Source: Pseudobdellovibrionaceae bacterium | GTDB taxonomy: Bacteria; Bdellovibrionota; Bdellovibrionia; Bdellovibrionales; Bdellovibrionaceae | Reading direction: 5' to 3' | Assembly (NCBI GenBank): GCA_044359815.1 | Contig: JBIKLL010000040.1 | Span: forward strand, 1 to 22,859 | DNA: 22,859 nt | In this document: in pieces, positions 2,552 through 15,323 of the stretch | Position numbering within the stretch: the stretch's first letter is position 1 | Layout: the number at the start of each line of letters is the position of its first letter | Notes under the pieces: model-generated | The model's database searches: none | Told to the model about the DNA's origin: nothing | Seen by the model: the letters and a program-made list of their open reading frames with translations, nothing else | Translations under genes and position numbers: made by a program

Positions 2552-3256
2552 ATGAAATTAATCGCAACTTTACTGTCAGTGATTTTATTGTTTTCACAAA
2601 TGGGTTTTGCAGATGATGCTTTGCGAATCAAGGCACTGAAAGATCAAATTATAACCATGGCCAAGGATTTTGAAGGGCAGGGGGATGCTGATTTTTCAAA
2701 ACAAAAAGCCTTGGATGTTTTGGTTGAAGAATTAGTTCTTTTAGCACCGCAGAAACCTGTGAAGGACAGAATCAGCGTTATCGCTGGGGTTTGGCGACAA
2801 GTGTGGGGCAAATACGACTACCGCAATGAAGACCGAGGCATAGATCCTGAATTAGGTATTGAAGAAATTTATCAAGTCGTAAATGAAAAAGGTTATTACT
2901 ACAACGTATCCTATTTGTATAAAGACGGTGACAGAAACCAAAAACGAATTGGCTTGTTGCGAGGTAAGTTTAAATTAGACAAGCAAGATTCGAATTCTTT
3001 AAAAGTAAAGTTCACCGACTACCCCGGTGCCAGTAAAAAATCAGATAATGTTCCATTGTGGGCATTAGCTGAAATGGCAGAGAATAAAACACTTCCAAAC
3101 AGAATCACTATTGTGTCTTCTTGGATTGTGCGATGGTTTTTTGGTGGCGGAACTTTGCGTGAAGCCTACACTGACAAAGATTTGCGCATCGTTTACGGAG
3201 CCAGCGGCGGAGTCAAAGAAAACGAAACCATTTATGTGATGACAAGGGTTCAATAA
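2552..3256 (+). CDS. Secreted PAP/fibrillin-like (lipocalin-like fold) protein
   Basis: RBS GAGGGGG. Sec signal peptide (…MGFA-DD). The pattern LKDQII...LVEELVLLAP...IAGVWRQVW...IYQVV...GTLREAYTDKDLRI resembles fibrillin GxW and TYLDxDLRI motifs. Confidence 0.6.
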   Translation: MKLIATLLSVILLFSQMGFADDALRIKALKDQIITMAKDFEGQGDADFSKQKALDVLVEELVLLAPQKPVKDRISVIAGVWRQVWGKYDYRNEDRGIDPELGIEEIYQVVNEKGYYYNVSYLYKDGDRNQKRIGLLRGKFKLDKQDSNSLKVKFTDYPGASKKSDNVPLWALAEMAENKTLPNRITIVSSWIVRWFFGGGTLREAYTDKDLRIVYGASGGVKENETIYVMTRVQ

Positions 3257-6746: not shown

Positions 6747-7706
6747 ATGAGTCAAAAGCGAGGTCTAGATTCCAAATCAACCACTGAAAACAATCACCCA
6801 TTGCAAATCCAATCAAAAACCCAAGGTTTTTTAACTGATTTAACCCACCTTTCAGACAAGGAGCTTAAGCTTTTGACTTCTTGGTTGTTTTCTAGACCCA
6901 GAAACACGCAAAAGTCCTACAAAACTGAAATCGCCAAGTTTTTGCAGATGTATCCTGGCCTGCAGCTAAAAAACGTTGAAACCTTTCACGTAGTCAAATT
7001 TTTAAACGATCTTAAAAAATCAGGACTTAAAGAAGTCTCTATCAATCACGCCAGGGATGCCCTGTCGTCGATGTTTAATTACTTTGTGAAAACTCATTTT
7101 ATAGTTTCAAACCCCGTAAGCCCCATTGAGCGAAATAAAATCCCTGATCAAACAGCTCACCGAATACAAACCATGGATGAAACCTTGCTGATGATCAAAA
7201 AAGAACCTGATGAAAGAAACAGAATCATTATCAGGACTATTTTTGAAACCGGAGTCAGACGGGAAGAACTGTGCAAGCTTTGTTTTAACAATATCTATAA
7301 ATACGGAAGAAACTATTTTCTGACGGTCACAGGCAAAGGTTCAAAAACCAGGACCATTATGATTTCTAAAAGTTTATTTTTAAGCCTGGAATCGCTGATT
7401 AAAAATCCTGACGGCACATTGGCTCCTCGAAAGACCGAGGTTTTTAGATCCTACAGATTTCCCTATAAGGCTCTGACGGGGACTGATATTTACCGCATTA
7501 TCATCAAAGCCAGCCTTCGCTGTGGCAAAAAACGATCTCCGCACGAGGGGCGCCATGGACACGCCACCTTGGCCCTTGAAAAGGGTGCAGACCTTCGTGA
7601 AATCCAGTTTACCTTGGGACATGAATCTATAACAACCACGACGAAATACACTCACGTCAGACCAACACAGTCGACGACAAGATTTATAAGATTTAAAAAA
7701 ATATGA
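6747..7706 (+). CDS. Tyrosine recombinase/integrase, XerC/XerD-like
   Basis: GGGGG RBS. SAM-like N-terminal domain (NTQKSY...SINHARDALSSMFNY). Complete catalytic set: R (TGVRREE), K (GKGSKTR), HxxR (SPHEGRH), LGH and Y (TTKYTH). Confidence 0.93.
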   Translation: MSQKRGLDSKSTTENNHPLQIQSKTQGFLTDLTHLSDKELKLLTSWLFSRPRNTQKSYKTEIAKFLQMYPGLQLKNVETFHVVKFLNDLKKSGLKEVSINHARDALSSMFNYFVKTHFIVSNPVSPIERNKIPDQTAHRIQTMDETLLMIKKEPDERNRIIIRTIFETGVRREELCKLCFNNIYKYGRNYFLTVTGKGSKTRTIMISKSLFLSLESLIKNPDGTLAPRKTEVFRSYRFPYKALTGTDIYRIIIKASLRCGKKRSPHEGRHGHATLALEKGADLREIQFTLGHESITTTTKYTHVRPTQSTTRFIRFKKI

Positions 7707-9682: not shown

Positions 9683-9967
9683 CCCATACTGATCTTTTAA
9701 ATATTTTAAAAGTATCTATATTCGAAAAAAGAGTTTCATTAGTACCACAAATTCCAACGTAAATTTTATTTTTTAATGACTTGTGCAGCGAGCGCGCTCT
9801 GCGTATCTAAGTGTTGCGGCATCGACAGATGAAGCAACACGGGAGACGAAGTGCGGCCGTTAGCGAAAGTCATTAAAGAGTAAAATTTATGTTGGAATTT
9901 GTGGTACTAATTCTATTTGCAGAAAGGAAAATAGTTTCTTTTAAAATATTTAAAGGATCAGTATGGG
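9683..9967 (+). repeat. Structured palindromic element, copy 1: conserved core 9784-9866 inside nested long inverted repeats
   Basis: Outer IR 9683-9712/9938-9967 (29/30). Inner IR 9739-9782/9867-9910 (41/44). All 4 mismatches are G-T/U pairs on the + strand. Core TGCAGCGAGCG...GCGGCCGTTAGCGA is shared with 14987-15094. Confidence 0.85.
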
Positions 9968-11904
9968 CATTCGTACTGAAAGCGCGCGACGGCGGCAGCA
10001 GGAGCTGAAGCAAAGGTCAGGATATTGCCCGAGACTGTGAATGCAGGCAGCGATGGTCCGCTGACCAATGTAGCAGTGACATCGGGGGACCCATTGTTGT
10101 CCTTATCCACAGGTGTGCACTGCAGTTGGATTTGCTTAACTGAGTTTTTGATCTGATGGCCGATGTCATCCAAGATTGTTGAATAATCATTGCTTTTAAT
10201 CTGTCCATCAGTGGCGCCAGTCAGTGTTTGCAACGACTGCAAAGCCCCAAGGATGCAAGGGACATTGTAACTGCAGACATTGTCAGCGGCTGGATCTTTG
10301 ATTGTATGGAAAAACATTTTTTTATTGATCCAGTTTTTGTTGATCAAACCTTGCAGGTAACTGCCCCTGCTTCTGATAGTGGTTCCGCCTTCGGCCTCAT
10401 CAGTGATTGAAATAATATGCAAACTGGCGTTGGCTCTGACAAAGGCTTTATTGTGTTGATTGATTGAATCACTCAGCAACGCCCTTTCCAGCATCCGCGC
10501 TGTGGATTTGATGGACTGCTGGGCCCAGTGACCCTTTTCACCCAACATCAGTGATTGAGCCAGGTTTGTGTTTAAATTTAAAGTGTCCATTGAATACCAG
10601 TACTTTGTGCTGTCTTGATGATTTGCCAACAGTAAGCCGTCTTGAACCTTTTGTTTAAATAATAAATCCTTGTTCGCAGGTTCAGGGCTGTTTGTGCCAT
10701 CATAGTTCATATCCGAAACACAGGTGTTGGCGTAAATATTTTGATTTTGGCCGTTACACAAACTGCCAGTCGTTGTGAATCCAATTCGGTAATCTATACC
10801 TGTAAGATGTGTGGTCAAATTGCCTATGGCTAAGCCCAGGGCCTGATGTTCGGAACTCATCGATGAAGTGTTAGCCACCACAAATAAAATTTCTGTCTGA
10901 TTCAAGGGTTGTTCTTGGATGATTTTTTTACCCTCATTGACCACTGAAAAATTAAAATGCCTTTCAGTTTGATTAGACAGTGTATCAGTCATCCGCACTT
11001 TGAAAGTGTGCGACCCCACAGACAATCCAGAATAAATTTTGGTTTCAGGATTGGCGCAGGGTTGATAGGGTGATCCATCCATTGTGCATTCAACCGATGA
11101 CAGCACCACTGAATTTCCCACGGCGTGAAAGGCAAAAACCACATCCTGCAGATTTCCCACGGCGGGTTCGGGACTGGCCGAAAACAAAACCTCTGGTCCA
11201 GATGAAATTGGCACCAAGGCATTTTGAATCCACGAAATCACCAGGGGTGGGGATTTATTACCAGCATTATCAAAAGCTTCTATCACCAAGGTTTTATTGC
11301 CATTTGTAATTGCGGTCAGATTTAATGGCGAACTGCATTCGGACCTGGCCTGTCCTGTAAAAACACATTCGTATTTTAAAATTCCTGATCCTGCATCGGC
11401 ACCTGAAAACTCCACTGTGGCCGTGCTGCCAGCGATTGTTCCGCTGGGGCCAGTTACCAGACTCAGAGTCGGCTTAATATTGTCGTGCAAATAAGTCACC
11501 GATTCACATCCAGATTCTGAATGTGAGTTTTTAAATTTTACGTAGACCGTGTTGGATTGATTCAGGTTTAAAATATTCCAGGACTTTTGAAAGCTAAAGT
11601 CTTCCCAGGCACCACCTGTTGAACAATCTGAAGTATTTGTGACATAGATTTGATTGGCGTGATTGGCAGTCAGATCCAGCAGAACGCTGGTTTTATTGGT
11701 AAACGAAGCTGCGGTCATTAAACCAGTGGGTGATTGAGATTCTGTAAAGGTTTGAACACTGGCTAAGGTCGTTGAAGTAGTGCTTGAAGAGGTTGATGCA
11801 GCCTCTAGCTGCTGGGGCTTTTCGCAATTGTTAAAGGCCAGCATCAGGATAATTCCGCATAAGGACAGAGCAAAATATCTGAAGACCCCTTTTTTCAGTG
11901 CCAT
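9958..11904 (-). CDS. Secreted/lipoprotein surface protein with Ig-like domains and a vWA-like domain
   Basis: Signal ending AFNNC, Ser/Thr-rich linker, Ig-like repeats (VYVKFKN, DNIKPTL, AFDNAGN, GLSVGSHTFKV), vWA-like ILFVVANTSSM...DYRIGFTTT...LHIISITDEAE, and a C-terminal LQCTP...YEC domain. Confidence 0.8.
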   Translation of the reverse strand: MALKKGVFRYFALSLCGIILMLAFNNCEKPQQLEAASTSSSTTSTTLASVQTFTESQSPTGLMTAASFTNKTSVLLDLTANHANQIYVTNTSDCSTGGAWEDFSFQKSWNILNLNQSNTVYVKFKNSHSESGCESVTYLHDNIKPTLSLVTGPSGTIAGSTATVEFSGADAGSGILKYECVFTGQARSECSSPLNLTAITNGNKTLVIEAFDNAGNKSPPLVISWIQNALVPISSGPEVLFSASPEPAVGNLQDVVFAFHAVGNSVVLSSVECTMDGSPYQPCANPETKIYSGLSVGSHTFKVRMTDTLSNQTERHFNFSVVNEGKKIIQEQPLNQTEILFVVANTSSMSSEHQALGLAIGNLTTHLTGIDYRIGFTTTGSLCNGQNQNIYANTCVSDMNYDGTNSPEPANKDLLFKQKVQDGLLLANHQDSTKYWYSMDTLNLNTNLAQSLMLGEKGHWAQQSIKSTARMLERALLSDSINQHNKAFVRANASLHIISITDEAEGGTTIRSRGSYLQGLINKNWINKKMFFHTIKDPAADNVCSYNVPCILGALQSLQTLTGATDGQIKSNDYSTILDDIGHQIKNSVKQIQLQCTPVDKDNNGSPDVTATLVSGPSLPAFTVSGNILTFASAPAAAVARFQYECPY

Positions 11905-11912
11905 CTTTTTAG

Positions 11913-11939
11913 AATCGTCTATAATTTCAAATAGCTAAA
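11913..11939 (-). promoter_or_regulatory. Candidate sigma28 (FliA)-type promoter
   Basis: Minus strand TTTAG-N16-ACGATT, ending 8 nt before ATG 11904. Confidence 0.4.
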
Positions 11940-11964
11940 CAGAATTTTTAAAGGACGTATCAAC

Positions 11965-13347
11965 GTGAGACTGCTGTCCCCAGAACAAATCCTAGCGATG
12001 GATCAATGGTGTTTAAAACACCATCCAGAATTAAATTTGATGAATCATGCAATCAATAAAATTTCTGATTTAATTCCTAAATTGATTCCCGATTTGATAC
12101 GGCAAAAAGCAGTCGTGGTCTGTGGTCCTGGTAACAATGGCAAAGACGGTCAAGGTGTTGGAGCAAAATTAAATTTAGAAGTCCTGAGCGTAAAACAGTT
12201 TTTACAATCCAACAAATCCTATGATTTGATCGTTGATGCTATTTACGGAGTGGGCCAGAGGCTTCCGCTAAATGCTGAAACTGAAAAGGCCATTCACAAA
12301 ATAAATGCCAGCAATGCGACCATCATCGCACTGGATGTTGCTACAGGTTGCGATCCCCTATCCGGAGTAGGGGAGTGTTTTGTCAAAGCTCATTGGACCT
12401 TGGCATTGGGATTTTTAAAGCCAGGATATTTTTTAAACAATGGACCACAGGCCTTTGGTAAAATTAAATTGCTGACATTGCCTTATCCTGAACAGCAAAT
12501 TTCAAAAATCAAACCCAGGTATTTATTGGCAACAAAAACTTGGGTTAAAAAACACTTTGTTAAACGAACTGATAATTCCAATAAAACCTATGGGGGCAGA
12601 TCCATCGTGATCGCTGGATCCAGGCAGTTTCCTGGGGCCAGTGTGCTTGCGTCAGACACAGCTCTGCGCATTGGAGCTGGGTATTTAGATCTGTTTACTG
12701 AAGTGTTGGATTCAGTAAAAAATCCAGATTTTATTTTGCATGATAAATTTAAAGTAAAACTGGAACACCTTAATGTCTCTGAAACAAAAAACCATAACAA
12801 ACTAGCCGTGCTGATAGGGCCAGGTGTAGGAATCAATTCAAACACCAGTGATTGGTTAAAGTATTTGTTTAAAAATAATTATCAAAAGGTCGTGGTGGAT
12901 GCGGATGCCATTTCGGTATTTGCCAAGGGCGGAATGAAGGCTCAACCACAATGGGTGTTCACCCCACACAGTGGAGAAATGGCAAAACTGATTGATCGCA
13001 GCAGCCAGTGGATTAACGAAAATAAATTTCAAGCGCTGAGCGAGTTTTATCAACAATACAAATGTCGGTGTTTGTTAAAGGGATTTCATTCGGTTTATTT
13101 TAATGGATCTGATTATGTGATTATACCCACAGGCAATAAAGCTCTGGCAAAATCAGGGACTGGGGATGTGCTGGCTGGAATGATCGTTGGATTAATGTCC
13201 CAGGGGCAGTCCACAGATCTGGCGACCATCAGTGCGGGATTTATCCACGGAGCCATCGCTGATGATTTTGTGACTGAAAATCATTATCTGACATTGAAAG
13301 CCTCTGATTTACCCAAAGGATTAAAAAAATTCTTAGACAGTTGGTGA
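11965..13347 (+). CDS. nnr: Bifunctional NAD(P)H-hydrate epimerase/dehydratase (YjeF/Nnr)
   Basis: GTG start with AAGGA RBS. YjeF_N motifs CGPGNNG, IVDAIYGVG, ALDVATG, KPG. Dehydratase motifs IAGS..FPGA, IGPGVG, VVDADA, TPHSGE, LLKG, LAKSGTGDVLAG. Confidence 0.92.
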   Translation: MRLLSPEQILAMDQWCLKHHPELNLMNHAINKISDLIPKLIPDLIRQKAVVVCGPGNNGKDGQGVGAKLNLEVLSVKQFLQSNKSYDLIVDAIYGVGQRLPLNAETEKAIHKINASNATIIALDVATGCDPLSGVGECFVKAHWTLALGFLKPGYFLNNGPQAFGKIKLLTLPYPEQQISKIKPRYLLATKTWVKKHFVKRTDNSNKTYGGRSIVIAGSRQFPGASVLASDTALRIGAGYLDLFTEVLDSVKNPDFILHDKFKVKLEHLNVSETKNHNKLAVLIGPGVGINSNTSDWLKYLFKNNYQKVVVDADAISVFAKGGMKAQPQWVFTPHSGEMAKLIDRSSQWINENKFQALSEFYQQYKCRCLLKGFHSVYFNGSDYVIIPTGNKALAKSGTGDVLAGMIVGLMSQGQSTDLATISAGFIHGAIADDFVTENHYLTLKASDLPKGLKKFLDSW

Positions 13348-14379
13348 TTGATTCAGCTGAATCACTTGGTGGGCCATATTAAAGCCGGCCTTAGAAAGGG
13401 CCTCGTGACCTTTATCGTAAACTCTGTCGCCAATGATGTAGTGATTGCCGTAGTTATCAATATAAAAAATCAATTTCAAAGCCTGCCATGAATCCGTCGT
13501 GTCCATGACCAAACAGATGGGCTCTGGGTATTTTTTGACGTCTTCGATTTCATTCAAACATTGGACCAGGATTTTTTTAGCCTCGATCACGTTACAACCA
13601 TAGGGCAATCTGAAAAACAAACTCTTAATGATGGGCTTTCCAAACAATGAATAATTTGAAATCTGTGATGAGGCCAATGTGCGATTAGGAACGATGATCA
13701 GTTCATCACTCCATCCAACCACTGTGGTGGCCCGCCATGAAATTTCTTTGACCTGACCGACGGTTTTACTGGAGCCGTTTACAATTTCAAGCCAGTCACC
13801 GATTTCAAATGATCTATCGATTTGTAGCGAAATCCCTGCAAATAAATTTCCCAAGGTGTCTTGCAATGCCAAACCCAGAACGACAGACACGATGGCCGAG
13901 GTTGCCAACAGCGGAGCCAACTTAACATTGAAAACCGATGATGCCATCCAAAGTGATAAAACAATCACCAACAGCAGCGAGAATATATTTACGATCAAAA
14001 CAGGCACACCGTGTTTCATGGAACCTAAAAACAAATACTGCAGCAGTATTAAAGAGCATGTTCTAACAAACACCATAAAGCCCCAAAACAAAGCGACAAG
14101 GCCCAGATAGGGAAAGGCTCTGGCAAAAATTGTGTCGGTTTCGGCCGAGAAATTGTTTTTTGCTACTAACGCACAAAAAAACAAAACCGTAAAAATCATA
14201 TAGTGTCTGAGTAACCTTGAAAAATCCCGCCTGAGGTTTCGATGTCGTTCTTCGCTAACGGCAGTTAAAAACAATCGGTAAAACACCCAAGCCACCAAAA
14301 ACAAACTCGACAGTAAAACAAAGGGCTCTAGATCTACGAATCCAAACAGGGCTTCGATATTGATGATTTGTTCTTTCAT
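13333..14379 (-). CDS. mscS: Small-conductance mechanosensitive channel family protein
   Basis: Several N-terminal TMs and the signature LGLALQDTLGNLFAGISLQIDRSFEIGDWLEI...GQVKEISWRAT...IIVPN. Confidence 0.92.
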   Translation of the reverse strand: MKEQIINIEALFGFVDLEPFVLLSSLFLVAWVFYRLFLTAVSEERHRNLRRDFSRLLRHYMIFTVLFFCALVAKNNFSAETDTIFARAFPYLGLVALFWGFMVFVRTCSLILLQYLFLGSMKHGVPVLIVNIFSLLLVIVLSLWMASSVFNVKLAPLLATSAIVSVVLGLALQDTLGNLFAGISLQIDRSFEIGDWLEIVNGSSKTVGQVKEISWRATTVVGWSDELIIVPNRTLASSQISNYSLFGKPIIKSLFFRLPYGCNVIEAKKILVQCLNEIEDVKKYPEPICLVMDTTDSWQALKLIFYIDNYGNHYIIGDRVYDKGHEALSKAGFNMAHQVIQLNQSPTV

Positions 14380-14380
14380 A

Positions 14381-14905
14381 TTACAAAAGTTCTGCGATGG
14401 CCGCGGCTATGGTGTAAATGCAAGCTTGAATGTCTTCTTCGGGCAGGGGATCGGCATCGCCTTCGCGCCAATTTTTAAAAGCCGCGATATTTCGCAGCGA
14501 CACACTGAACATCATGTTACCACTGGGATTTGTGCCGTAAGCACAGATAAATGTTTGAATGCGGTTTTCTTTGAATGTCAGCCCCACCACAGATTTACGC
14601 AGTGTCATCGCGCCCATGGCCAGATCCTCGACGATCATTTTATAAGTTTCCATTTTCATTTGGCGTAAATTGCTAAAGCTATTTTTAAAACTTCCGTCGT
14701 TATAGATGGCTAAAATTTCATTGCCTTTTGTGAGCAGTTTTTTTTCAAGCAGGCTTGGTTCGGCTTTGAGCAAGTTTGCAAGCTCTAATGTCGACTCATA
14801 GATATGAATAAAATTTTCTTTGAATTTGGGCGCTGCAGTCATACAAATATTTTGCCAACTATTCGCAAATTTTTCACCGAGACCATGGTCTGAATTCTTG
14901 GTCAT
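14381..14905 (-). CDS. Hypothetical protein, probably co-transcribed with mscS
   Basis: 174-aa ORF with RBS GGGGTG. Its stop is 1 nt before the mscS ATG. Confidence 0.75.
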   Translation of the reverse strand: MTKNSDHGLGEKFANSWQNICMTAAPKFKENFIHIYESTLELANLLKAEPSLLEKKLLTKGNEILAIYNDGSFKNSFSNLRQMKMETYKMIVEDLAMGAMTLRKSVVGLTFKENRIQTFICAYGTNPSGNMMFSVSLRNIAAFKNWREGDADPLPEEDIQACIYTIAAAIAELL

Positions 14906-15323
14906 TCACACCCCATCTGGACCGCTTAAACCCATATCTCGTGATGCATAAATGCAAAGATAATTTTTTTCACTATTTTTAGACACTCGCTAACGGCCGC
15001 GGGCTCATCTCTCGTATTGAATCATTTTATAAAAGCAATTTTTTTGCTTTTATCAAATGATTCAACACCAGATATGCCCCGCACGCTCGCTGCATGTGTC
15101 TAAAAACAGTAAAAACAAATTACCTTTGCATGCAAGCAATACGAGAGATGAGCTTGCGGCCGTTAGCAAGTATTCAAAAGGTATAAAACAAAGAAATATT
15201 TTTTAAAATTCAAATAAATTGCAGGTAAGGGAGTCATCTGGTGATTTTGTCTCAGAAGAATCCGTTTTTTGGTTTTAGATGGGTCGTTGGGGCTGTGAAA
15301 GCGCAACAATTCAGACCATGGTC
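14881..15323. repeat. Degenerate long-range inverted repeat copying the RBS/start region of gene 14381..14905
   Basis: 14881-14896 GACCATGGTCTGAATT is the exact reverse complement of 15308-15323. The match extends to 14881-14915/15288-15323 (31/36). Confidence 0.7.
14933..15169 (-). repeat. Structured palindromic element, copy 2 (core 14987-15094, minus strand), nested in a partial + strand copy
   Basis: Minus-strand core TGCAGCGAGCG...GCGGCCGTTAGCGA with a long internal hairpin. Flanking IR 14952-14986/15096-15131, whose three substitutions are G-T on the minus strand (plus one bulge). Outer + strand partial copy CATATCTCGTGATGC (14933-14947)...CAATACGAGAGATGAGCTTGCGGCCGTTAGC (15137-15167). 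Confidence 0.85.

Follow-up and report, generated by a model that had tools for sequence, protein, structure and literature searches.

We analyzed a window of DNA from a Pseudobdellovibrionaceae bacterium, a stretch of 22,859 nucleotides (nt) that is contig C26 of a 2.95-Mb, 125-contig genome with 41% G+C (coded G000). An earlier note on this DNA had pointed out two related structured stretches, at 9784-9866 on the plus strand (copy 1) and at 15094-14987 on the minus strand (copy 2), both starting with TGCAGCGAGCG and ending with GCGGCCGTTAGCGA, and these coordinates and shared ends are right. The two stretches are two of about 140 copies of a noncoding, hairpin-forming palindromic repeat, here called family A, which is probably an undescribed family of the REP (repetitive extragenic palindromic) or MITE (miniature inverted-repeat transposable element) kind. 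Each unit consists of a core and two inverted arms, and copy 2 lies within the remains of a second, outer unit. The features of both loci, some of which overlap neighboring open reading frames (ORFs), are given below; scores are those of the covariance model R1, for which 19 units were aligned.

9683..9782 (+): 5' arm of copy 1; the core-proximal 20 nt or so are common to about 8 other type 1 copies, and the remainder is locus specific
9783 (+): unpaired purine, G, at the junction of 5' arm and core in copy 1, seen in the folds; A or G in other copies
9784..9866 (+): core of copy 1, type 1, 83 nt, from folds, alignment, and model R1 (96.3 bits)
9867..9967 (+): 3' arm of copy 1; its last 10 nt overlap the final codons and stop of ORF 9958..11904 (-)
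14931..14945 (+): remnant of the outer unit's 5' collar, CCCATATCTCGTGAT, 15 nt, read against complete composites
14946..14986 (-): 3' arm of the copy 2 inner unit, inverted repeat I10, which doubles as the apical stem of the outer unit
14987..15094 (-): 108-nt core of copy 2, an inner unit of type 2 whose apical hairpin is long and AT rich
15096..15136 (-): 5' arm of the copy 2 inner unit, inverted repeat I10; the unpaired A is 15095
15137..15169 (+, the strand opposite to copy 2): 3' collar half of the outer unit, CAATACGAGAGATGAGCTTGCGGCCGTTAGCAA, inverted repeat I1
15170..15236 (+): 3' arm of the outer unit, with an arm sequence common to about 50 copies

In copy 1, the core is bounded by two collars, TGCAGCGAGCG on the 5' side and GCGGCCGTTAGCGA on the 3' side; between them are a helix that has bulges and conserved G.A and A.G mismatches and an apical hairpin whose loop is GACA. 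The arms of this copy contain the inverted repeats I2 (45 nt, 93%) and I3 (41 nt, 90%), and a gapped alignment joins them over 100 nt with a core offset of 0. In a BLAST comparison of the copy 1 locus with the genome, only positions 9764-9885 were repeated elsewhere. The internal stems that had been reported for the two copies are all present (CGCTCT/AGTGCG in copy 1 and TGCGGG/CCCGCG in copy 2; CGT/ACG and CAT/ATG; GTGTTG/CAACAC and GTGTTG/CAATAC), as are the conserved A.G mismatch, the unrelated apices, and the common closing register, in which the arm meets the core after one purine (G 9783 in copy 1, A 15095 in copy 2).

Copy 2, which model R1 matched with 84.1 bits over 14977-15105, does not stand alone but forms the inner unit of a nested composite that is truncated. 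The 5' half of the outer unit is reduced to the collar remnant, which adjoins the start of ORF 14381..14905 (-), and the remainder of that half is absent along with its arm. The outer 3' arm at 15170..15236 terminates in a ...CCTGC..TTAATTTGAA-type motif and has no partner arm at the locus. Separately, the entire copy 2 locus lies between the halves of an inverted repeat of 34 nt (85% complementary, 14881-14914 and 15290-15323), which takes in the first codons of ORF 14381..14905 and part of which is a self-palindrome, GACCATGGTC.

Family A is present throughout the genome. The 3' motif GCGGCCGTTAGC has 139 exact matches in the 2.95 Mb, compared to 0 for a reversed control, and 146 matches when up to one mismatch is allowed, compared to 6 for the control. 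Among 40 genomes of relatives, all of other genera, we found 0 to 2 exact matches each. The partner 5' collar and closing stem are present for 98 of the 146 motif matches, while the other 48 are cut by a contig end, have lost the other half, or occur by chance. All units follow one plan: a GC-rich, asymmetric core of about 80 nt, starting 5' with (R)T(G/C)CAGCGAGCG and closed by a variable apex, with AT-rich inverted-repeat arms of 47 to 140 nt that run from the core edge. In 95 of the 98 units, the arms start at zero offset on both sides. A search of one paper library for work on Bdellovibrio REPs or MITEs found none.

Units differ in core length and in nesting. Type 1 units, such as copy 1, are solo units with cores of 78 to 94 nt, and about nine of these copies have some 20 nt of arm in common; in type 2 units, the core measures 108-109 or 130-131 nt. 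One-third of the units (33/98) are long, spanning 237 to 419 nt, and at the inspected loci these are outer units, with an entire inner unit of the other strand within the apical stem. A second, opposite-strand unit was found at most of the 19 inspected loci, and three loci that are cut at a contig start show just one end. We also observed a 5'-collar variant in which an extra mini-hairpin (ACGGTTAATTTACCG-like) in the first helix turns the rod into a three-way junction (G000 C110:629-734, C52:42826-43000, C34:14890-15077, and C49:127585-127750).

The core forms a conserved, rod-like imperfect hairpin, and this fold is strand specific. RNA folding of copy 1 gave -59.3 kcal/mol for the sense strand and -40.3 kcal/mol for the antisense strand (z = -8.6 compared to shuffles), and the corresponding values for copy 2 were -79.2 and -59.0 kcal/mol (z = -13.1), an advantage of 19-20 kcal/mol for the sense strand in both copies. 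DNA folding of copy 1 gave -31.8 sense and -24.6 antisense (z = -7.7). The structure alignment combined 19 units from the window genome and from a second Bdellovibrionales metagenome-assembled genome (MAG) with six copies, coded G041. In this alignment, 86.9% of cells hold a pair, compared to 72.5% in shuffles and 35-47% with slid partners, and both sides have changed at 21 of 41 pairs, which supports the fold and its covarying pairs. For 13 model matches in 11 further genomes, 83.6% of cells were paired, compared to 64.8% in shuffles, in an alignment that was fitted to the model and leans its way. Wobbles prevail over A.C oppositions in the core, with 65 G.U to 16 A.C in the two genomes and 30 to 19 in the other genomes, where 10 of the 19 A.C oppositions are one conserved C.A position. 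Conserved bulges, A.G and C.A oppositions, and G.U/T wobbles are characteristic of the core, and the apical loops of some copies are of the GNRA type (GACA, GCAA, GAAA).

These properties could belong to a structured RNA. The core would then be an element of the 3' untranslated region or terminator type, or a small RNA, acting on the transcripts of converging genes, for instance in stabilizing or processing their 3' ends or in binding a protein, and its spread as DNA would be secondary. The strand-specific fold, the conserved G.U and noncanonical pairs, the greater stability of the sense strand, and the GNRA-type loops all speak for an RNA, but units are nested on opposite strands and nothing in Rfam matches. 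G.T wobbles and GNA- or GNRA-like loops are, moreover, also stable in single-stranded DNA, which counts against an RNA. Taking these points together with those from the genomic location and the conservation given below, we regard a structured RNA as an unlikely explanation, although one to be taken seriously. An intrinsic terminator consists of a GC-rich stem-loop and a run of T after it; simple scans for promoters and for terminators, the latter counting only loops of 3-8 nt, returned no site at either copy.

At gathering thresholds, the only Rfam match in the window is a tRNA at 2391-2463 (+, 69.2 bits), with nothing at the repeat loci; at loose E-values (E<=10 for the window, E<=1 for relatives), only plant and animal microRNA-hairpin models appeared, far below threshold. 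The repeat thus matches no described family. The same searches bear on a self-cleaving ribozyme or retrozyme-like element, for which the compact conserved fold with internal loops is the sole point in favor. No ribozyme family matched even at E up to 10 (E up to 1 in relatives), the core folds into a simple rod that has none of the junctions or pseudoknots by which known small ribozymes are marked, and a nested arrangement on opposite strands is unsuited to such an element, which makes this by a wide measure an implausible identity for the core.

The arms behave differently from the core. The earlier note had counted seven substitutions in the flanking inverted repeats of the two copies, all of them G-T/U wobbles on the strand carrying the core. 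This holds for the segments nearest the core but not further out, where other mismatches occur: copy 1 has G.T at arm positions 12, 14, 24, and 88 and T.T, T.T, A.A, A.G, and A.A at 54-70, and copy 2 has G.T at 12, 16, and 28 and, farther from the core, C.T, T.T, and A.C. Five of the seven wobbles (12 and 14 in copy 1; 12, 16, and 28 in copy 2) recur in many other copies and were therefore inherited rather than acquired in independent events. Considering copy-specific arm mismatches, whose context is unique in the genome, we counted 92 G.T and 96 A.C, plus 213 others, and for the outermost units 70 G.T and 55 A.C (P = 0.21). Because there is a wobble bias in the core and none in the arms, one strand of the core matters, whereas the arms act as plain double-stranded palindromes. 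Selection on a single-stranded, rod-like fold, which the earlier note had proposed, is supported for the core, which is paired, covarying, and strand specific, but not for the copy-specific arms; on the whole, the earlier observation is partly confirmed and its interpretation partly supported.

Within each copy the arms are near perfect, and arm sequence is common between copies in recent subfamilies only. Arms also contain the ends of host genes. In G041, arms of 134 nt (132 identical) take in the final 26 nt of an ORF for an ABC permease, and the Pfam match of this ORF extends to the profile end. In another genome, G120, the left arm contains the last codons of dapB, conserved in every genome of the genus (13 of 13), and in copy 1 of the window, the right arm spans the last codons and stop of ORF 9958..11904 and the left arm is their inverted repeat. 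The arms evolve in concert and in place, capturing host coding ends. Given that they are near perfect within a copy, differ between orthologs, and invert host coding ends, the covariation of the arms most likely reflects copying of one arm from the other at the DNA level, as judged from these sequence comparisons.

In G041 and in copy 1 of the window, the native end of the gene is on the side of the 3' collar, but in G120 it is on the side of the 5' collar, and copying therefore has no fixed polarity. This bears on the idea of a nick-and-fold-back module, in which a nuclease would nick the core boundary and the 3' end, folded back as its own hairpin primer, would copy the flank in the manner of a rolling hairpin and so actively build the arms. 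The exact register of arm and core (95 of 98 units), the inverted host coding ends in the arms, and the strong conservation of the boundary motif would all fit such a module, but a single polar nick predicts a fixed polarity, and no nuclease is linked to the family. We consider this origin of the arms very unlikely. Among the long inverted repeats of the genome, 5 of 152 have a spacer of <40 nt, indicating that such repeats almost never occur without a core-sized spacer and that the arms accompany the elements. A segmented inverted duplication of about 330 nt (G000 C54:1248-1579 and 2682-3012), which surrounds a 237-amino-acid (aa) ORF with a signal-peptide-like start, shows that large inverted duplications arise away from the repeat families too.

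We ran model R1 on 151 genomes of the order and obtained matches in 15, with 1 to at least 31 copies per genome. By coded family, the positive genomes are 0 of 31 in the window's own family besides the window genome itself, 6 of 26 in a second family, 6 of 31 in a third, and 2 of 3 in a fourth. The motifs GCGTATC on the 5' strand, GA(A/G)GACG on the 3' strand, and GCGGCCG are conserved order-wide, together with fixed A.G and C.A oppositions. A pattern scan of public genomes gave three loci, of which the real one is in a Bdellovibrionales MAG; the two others, both in Firmicutes, were judged to be chance matches. In G041, two family A copies (loci L008 and L012) lie inside further shared GC-rich inverted sequence (..CGAGTGAATAGACAG..), which suggests another repeat layer in that genome.

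Conservation of the core is best seen in two species of one genus, each of which has a copy downstream of dapB that is single in its genome, a count that may be too low given that these are fragmented metagenome-assembled genomes of about 370 contigs each. The locus is orthologous on both sides, with flanks that are 73.7% and 75.1% identical between the species. The two cores share an identical block of 77 nt (77/77 bases), whereas the arms, self-identical at 62/63 and 64/67 positions, can barely be aligned between the species. In the other 11 genomes of the genus, the element is absent downstream of dapB, and there is a different downstream gene, so that none of them offers a clean empty site. 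Given that the core stays imperfect inside a homogenized palindrome and is identical between diverged species, its exact sequence is apparently under selection, which implies that something reads it.

An identical core of 77 nt at a single-copy orthologous locus, between flanks that are about 74% identical, is also the main support for a structured RNA. On the other hand, 136 of the 151 genomes sampled in the order lack the family, which argues that it does not serve a core function. It is conceivable, but in our judgment doubtful, that the core, with its 80 nt or so, serves throughout the order as a functional module in single-stranded form, be it RNA or DNA, under near-absolute purifying selection, whose hairpin makes of its flanks a self-correcting, self-lengthening palindrome and which in some lineages has become a genome-filling replicator that needs no dedicated transposase.

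Copies of family A are concentrated where genes end. With crude gene calls (ORFs of at least 110 aa), called genes flank 55 of the 66 outermost units on either side, and the other 11 are at a contig edge. The neighbors of these 55 units are convergent in 37 cases, co-directional in 15, and divergent in 3. Convergent gaps account for 238 of the 1,243 gaps of at least 40 nt in the genome (19%), so that the preference for convergent gaps is a strong enrichment (P ~1e-14). The flanking ORFs on both sides mostly extend a few codons into the arms. In the window genome and 11 others, the genes beside the copies are unrelated housekeeping genes. Copies lie just past stop codons, where transcription would reach them, which favors a structured RNA, but relative to the 15 co-directional pairs of neighbors, the copies show no preference in orientation (9 in the same sense, 6 in the opposite sense). 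We also inspected by eye the orientation of 23 copies along the chromosome of a complete relative, whose origin was not located, and saw no clear two-replichore pattern.

The reading that we favor is that of an undescribed REP- or MITE-like family whose conserved core is read as a single strand, whose arms are kept by copying at the DNA level, and whose copies are retained at the 3' ends of genes; on balance, we consider it probable. The core would be a functional module, most likely a DNA hairpin that is exposed during replication and recognized by a trans-acting protein that spreads or maintains the element; an RNA form appears less likely. The arms would not be selected pair by pair. Instead, template switching during replication, nucleated by the stable core hairpin, may keep the palindrome near perfect and lengthen it. 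Template switching in quasipalindromes was reportedly worked out by Ripley and Lovett. It is an established mutational mechanism in Escherichia coli, as presented in parts of PMC7202029. Copies would survive mainly at the 3' ends of genes, where they may be harmless and possibly act as 3'-end hairpins.

Several observations weigh against this interpretation. The GNRA-type loops of the core are typical of RNA, and a core that is 100% conserved in two species, each with what appears to be one copy, resembles an element useful to the host, such as an RNA gene or a protein site, more than a selfish repeat. That template switching maintains the arms is something we infer here from their sequence. 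None of the 10 Y1/HUH genes in the window genome is flanked by family A units, nor is any in G041. Y1_Tnp is as common without the element as with it (117 of 151 genomes; 11 of the 14 other element-positive genomes), and genome G042 has 31 copies of the element and no Y1_Tnp match. No gene-carrying version of the element was found among the 11 inverted-repeat pairs with spacers of 450-3500 nt in the genome; one of these pairs encloses an ordinary 237-aa ORF and another a Y1 paralog. In a flank logo made from 67 arm ends, there is only a weak continuation, A(A/G)CTGG; a direct repeat that would mark a target-site duplication is not evident, and the variable arms make the ends hard to place. Finally, contigs from four other lake metagenomes revealed no insertion or empty-site polymorphism; these contigs end inside repeats, where depth is 40-100 times that of the flanks, and the copy 1 locus is without differences.

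The search for a mobilizer likewise gave no partner for family A. The earlier note had named an HUH enzyme or a tyrosine recombinase as the possible agent, but neither an HUH transposase nor an integron integrase could be linked to family A. Eight of the 10 Y1-type genes are paralogs of 206-211 aa with about 80-92% identity (86-92% between the proteins), each amid different microsatellite-like tandem repeats. These paralogs lie at G000 C48:48177-48794 and on C49, C23, C47, C100, C56, C8, and C125; the C48 copy lies within an inverted repeat of 143 nt, to which the 3' end of this gene itself belongs, and homologs are multicopy in many genomes of the order. An IS110-type gene had no match in the window genome, and the best score for integron integrase (TIGR02249) there is 62.8 bits, compared to a cutoff of 265. 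The genome has two Xer-like tyrosine recombinases, of which one is ORF 6747-7706 (+), 2 kb upstream of copy 1; its match to the integron-integrase model is weak (about 42 bits; cutoff, 265), which marks it as an ordinary tyrosine recombinase of the Xer type. No close counterpart of the window's flanking genes was found in G041.

The two Xer-like genes are relevant to a further explanation, in which one strand of the core would fold into a recombination site of the attC or CTX-attP type for use by a tyrosine recombinase, with strand choice set by the bulged bases and an apex at liberty to vary. The core resembles such a site in that it folds strand specifically into an imperfect hairpin, one strand of which bears extrahelical bases, and in that its ends are conserved while its apex varies, and one of the candidate recombinase genes is close to copy 1. 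The consensus boxes of attC sites, R'' and R', are RYYYAAC and GTTRRRY. This box pair is missing, however, the copies are single and dispersed among housekeeping genes rather than arranged in cassette arrays, and no integron integrase rises above the cutoff, so that a site of this type is highly improbable.

The window genome contains three further families, B, C, and D, with the same architecture and location as family A. Family B has 47-54 loci by pattern (for example, G000 C101:4328-4517 and C13:51828-52009), with a GC-rich core of 54-61 nt (CTCTGCGGAGCC...GGCGGGGGC...CCCGAGCAGAG...) and copy-specific AT-rich inverted arms of 32-81 nt; 31 of 49 placed loci are between convergent genes, and there is no Rfam match. 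Family C, with 18 loci (for example, G000 C116:2976-3255 and C2:3191-3492), has the core GAGTTCGGACG...GCGCGCAGC...CGCTGTTTGA and arms of up to about 137 nt, and it is sometimes nested in a family D pair. For family D, the repeat census gave 9 loci, and its arm motif is present in 54 copies. Together, families A to D occupy 94 of the 238 convergent gaps of at least 40 nt (about 40%). The repeat of family D has GTAG at its head, and two copies that form a perfect inverted pair of 26 nt flank a Y1 gene (C8:9501-10136, in locus G000 C8:9474-10291; 211 aa; Pfam Y1_Tnp, 33.5 bits) that resembles the REP-associated tyrosine transposases (RAYTs). Family D and this gene look like a classical REP-RAYT system in a Bdellovibrio-like genome and fit the definition published in PMC2817692, as far as the sections concerned set it out.

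Identifying what reads the core of family A, whether a protein or an RNA partner, would lead to a new mode of spreading for mobile DNA or to a new kind of 3'-end element in predatory bacteria. A more general lesson is that covariation in a palindromic repeat is not in itself evidence for an RNA, given that the arms described here covary without strand bias and copy host coding sequence.

Comparison with known systems places family A near several of them and within none. A REP unit has a GT(A/G)G head followed by a short palindrome, as described in portions of PMC2817692, and REPINs (hairpin-forming REP doublets) consist of two inverted REPs with this head at the ends and a less conserved spacer, as outlined in parts of PMC3116915 and PMC2817692. 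Family A is similar to REPINs, to the extent that the same parts of PMC3116915 characterize them, in that it is high copy, extragenic, and lineage specific, forms a long hairpin on one strand with compensatory changes, and occurs in higher-order arrangements. In family A, however, the center is conserved and asymmetric and the arms are variable, whereas in REPINs, going by those passages of PMC3116915, the ends are conserved and the middle is variable. Family A also lacks the GT(A/G)G head, and the halves of its collar are not inverted copies of each other. In contrast to a REP-RAYT system, the RAYT-like gene on C8 is flanked by family D rather than by family A.

The REPIN- or attC-like logic that had been put forward for the two copies is therefore apt in that dispersed copies suit it better than a single RNA gene, but the defining features of both systems are absent. 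Family A shares with attC sites an imperfect hairpin on one strand, extrahelical bases that mark the strand, conserved ends, and a variable apex; it differs in its 3' end, GTTAGCG, in a 5' collar that has no AAC partner, and in the lack of cassette arrays and an integron integrase. By the defining features tested, family A is not a REPIN, nor is it an attC site or any Rfam family.

The MITEs and palindromic repeats of bacteria, such as Correia/NEMIS, ERIC/IRU, and EFAR, are small, noncoding, bounded by inverted repeats, and capable of forming hairpins; they are often near stop codons, and nested insertions are known. Family A has all of these traits, nesting included, but its arms are not conserved family-wide and diverge beyond a recent subfamily, no parent insertion sequence was found, and its conserved part is central and is conserved across families of an order. 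Quasipalindrome template switching would account for imperfect repeats becoming perfect and for arms changing together. That process is known as a hot spot of point mutation in short repeats, whereas here it would need to preserve and extend arms of 50-140 nt around a protected imperfect core. Overall, family A reverses the usual pattern of REPINs and MITEs, with a center that is conserved and asymmetric and arms that evolve fast and yet remain symmetric.

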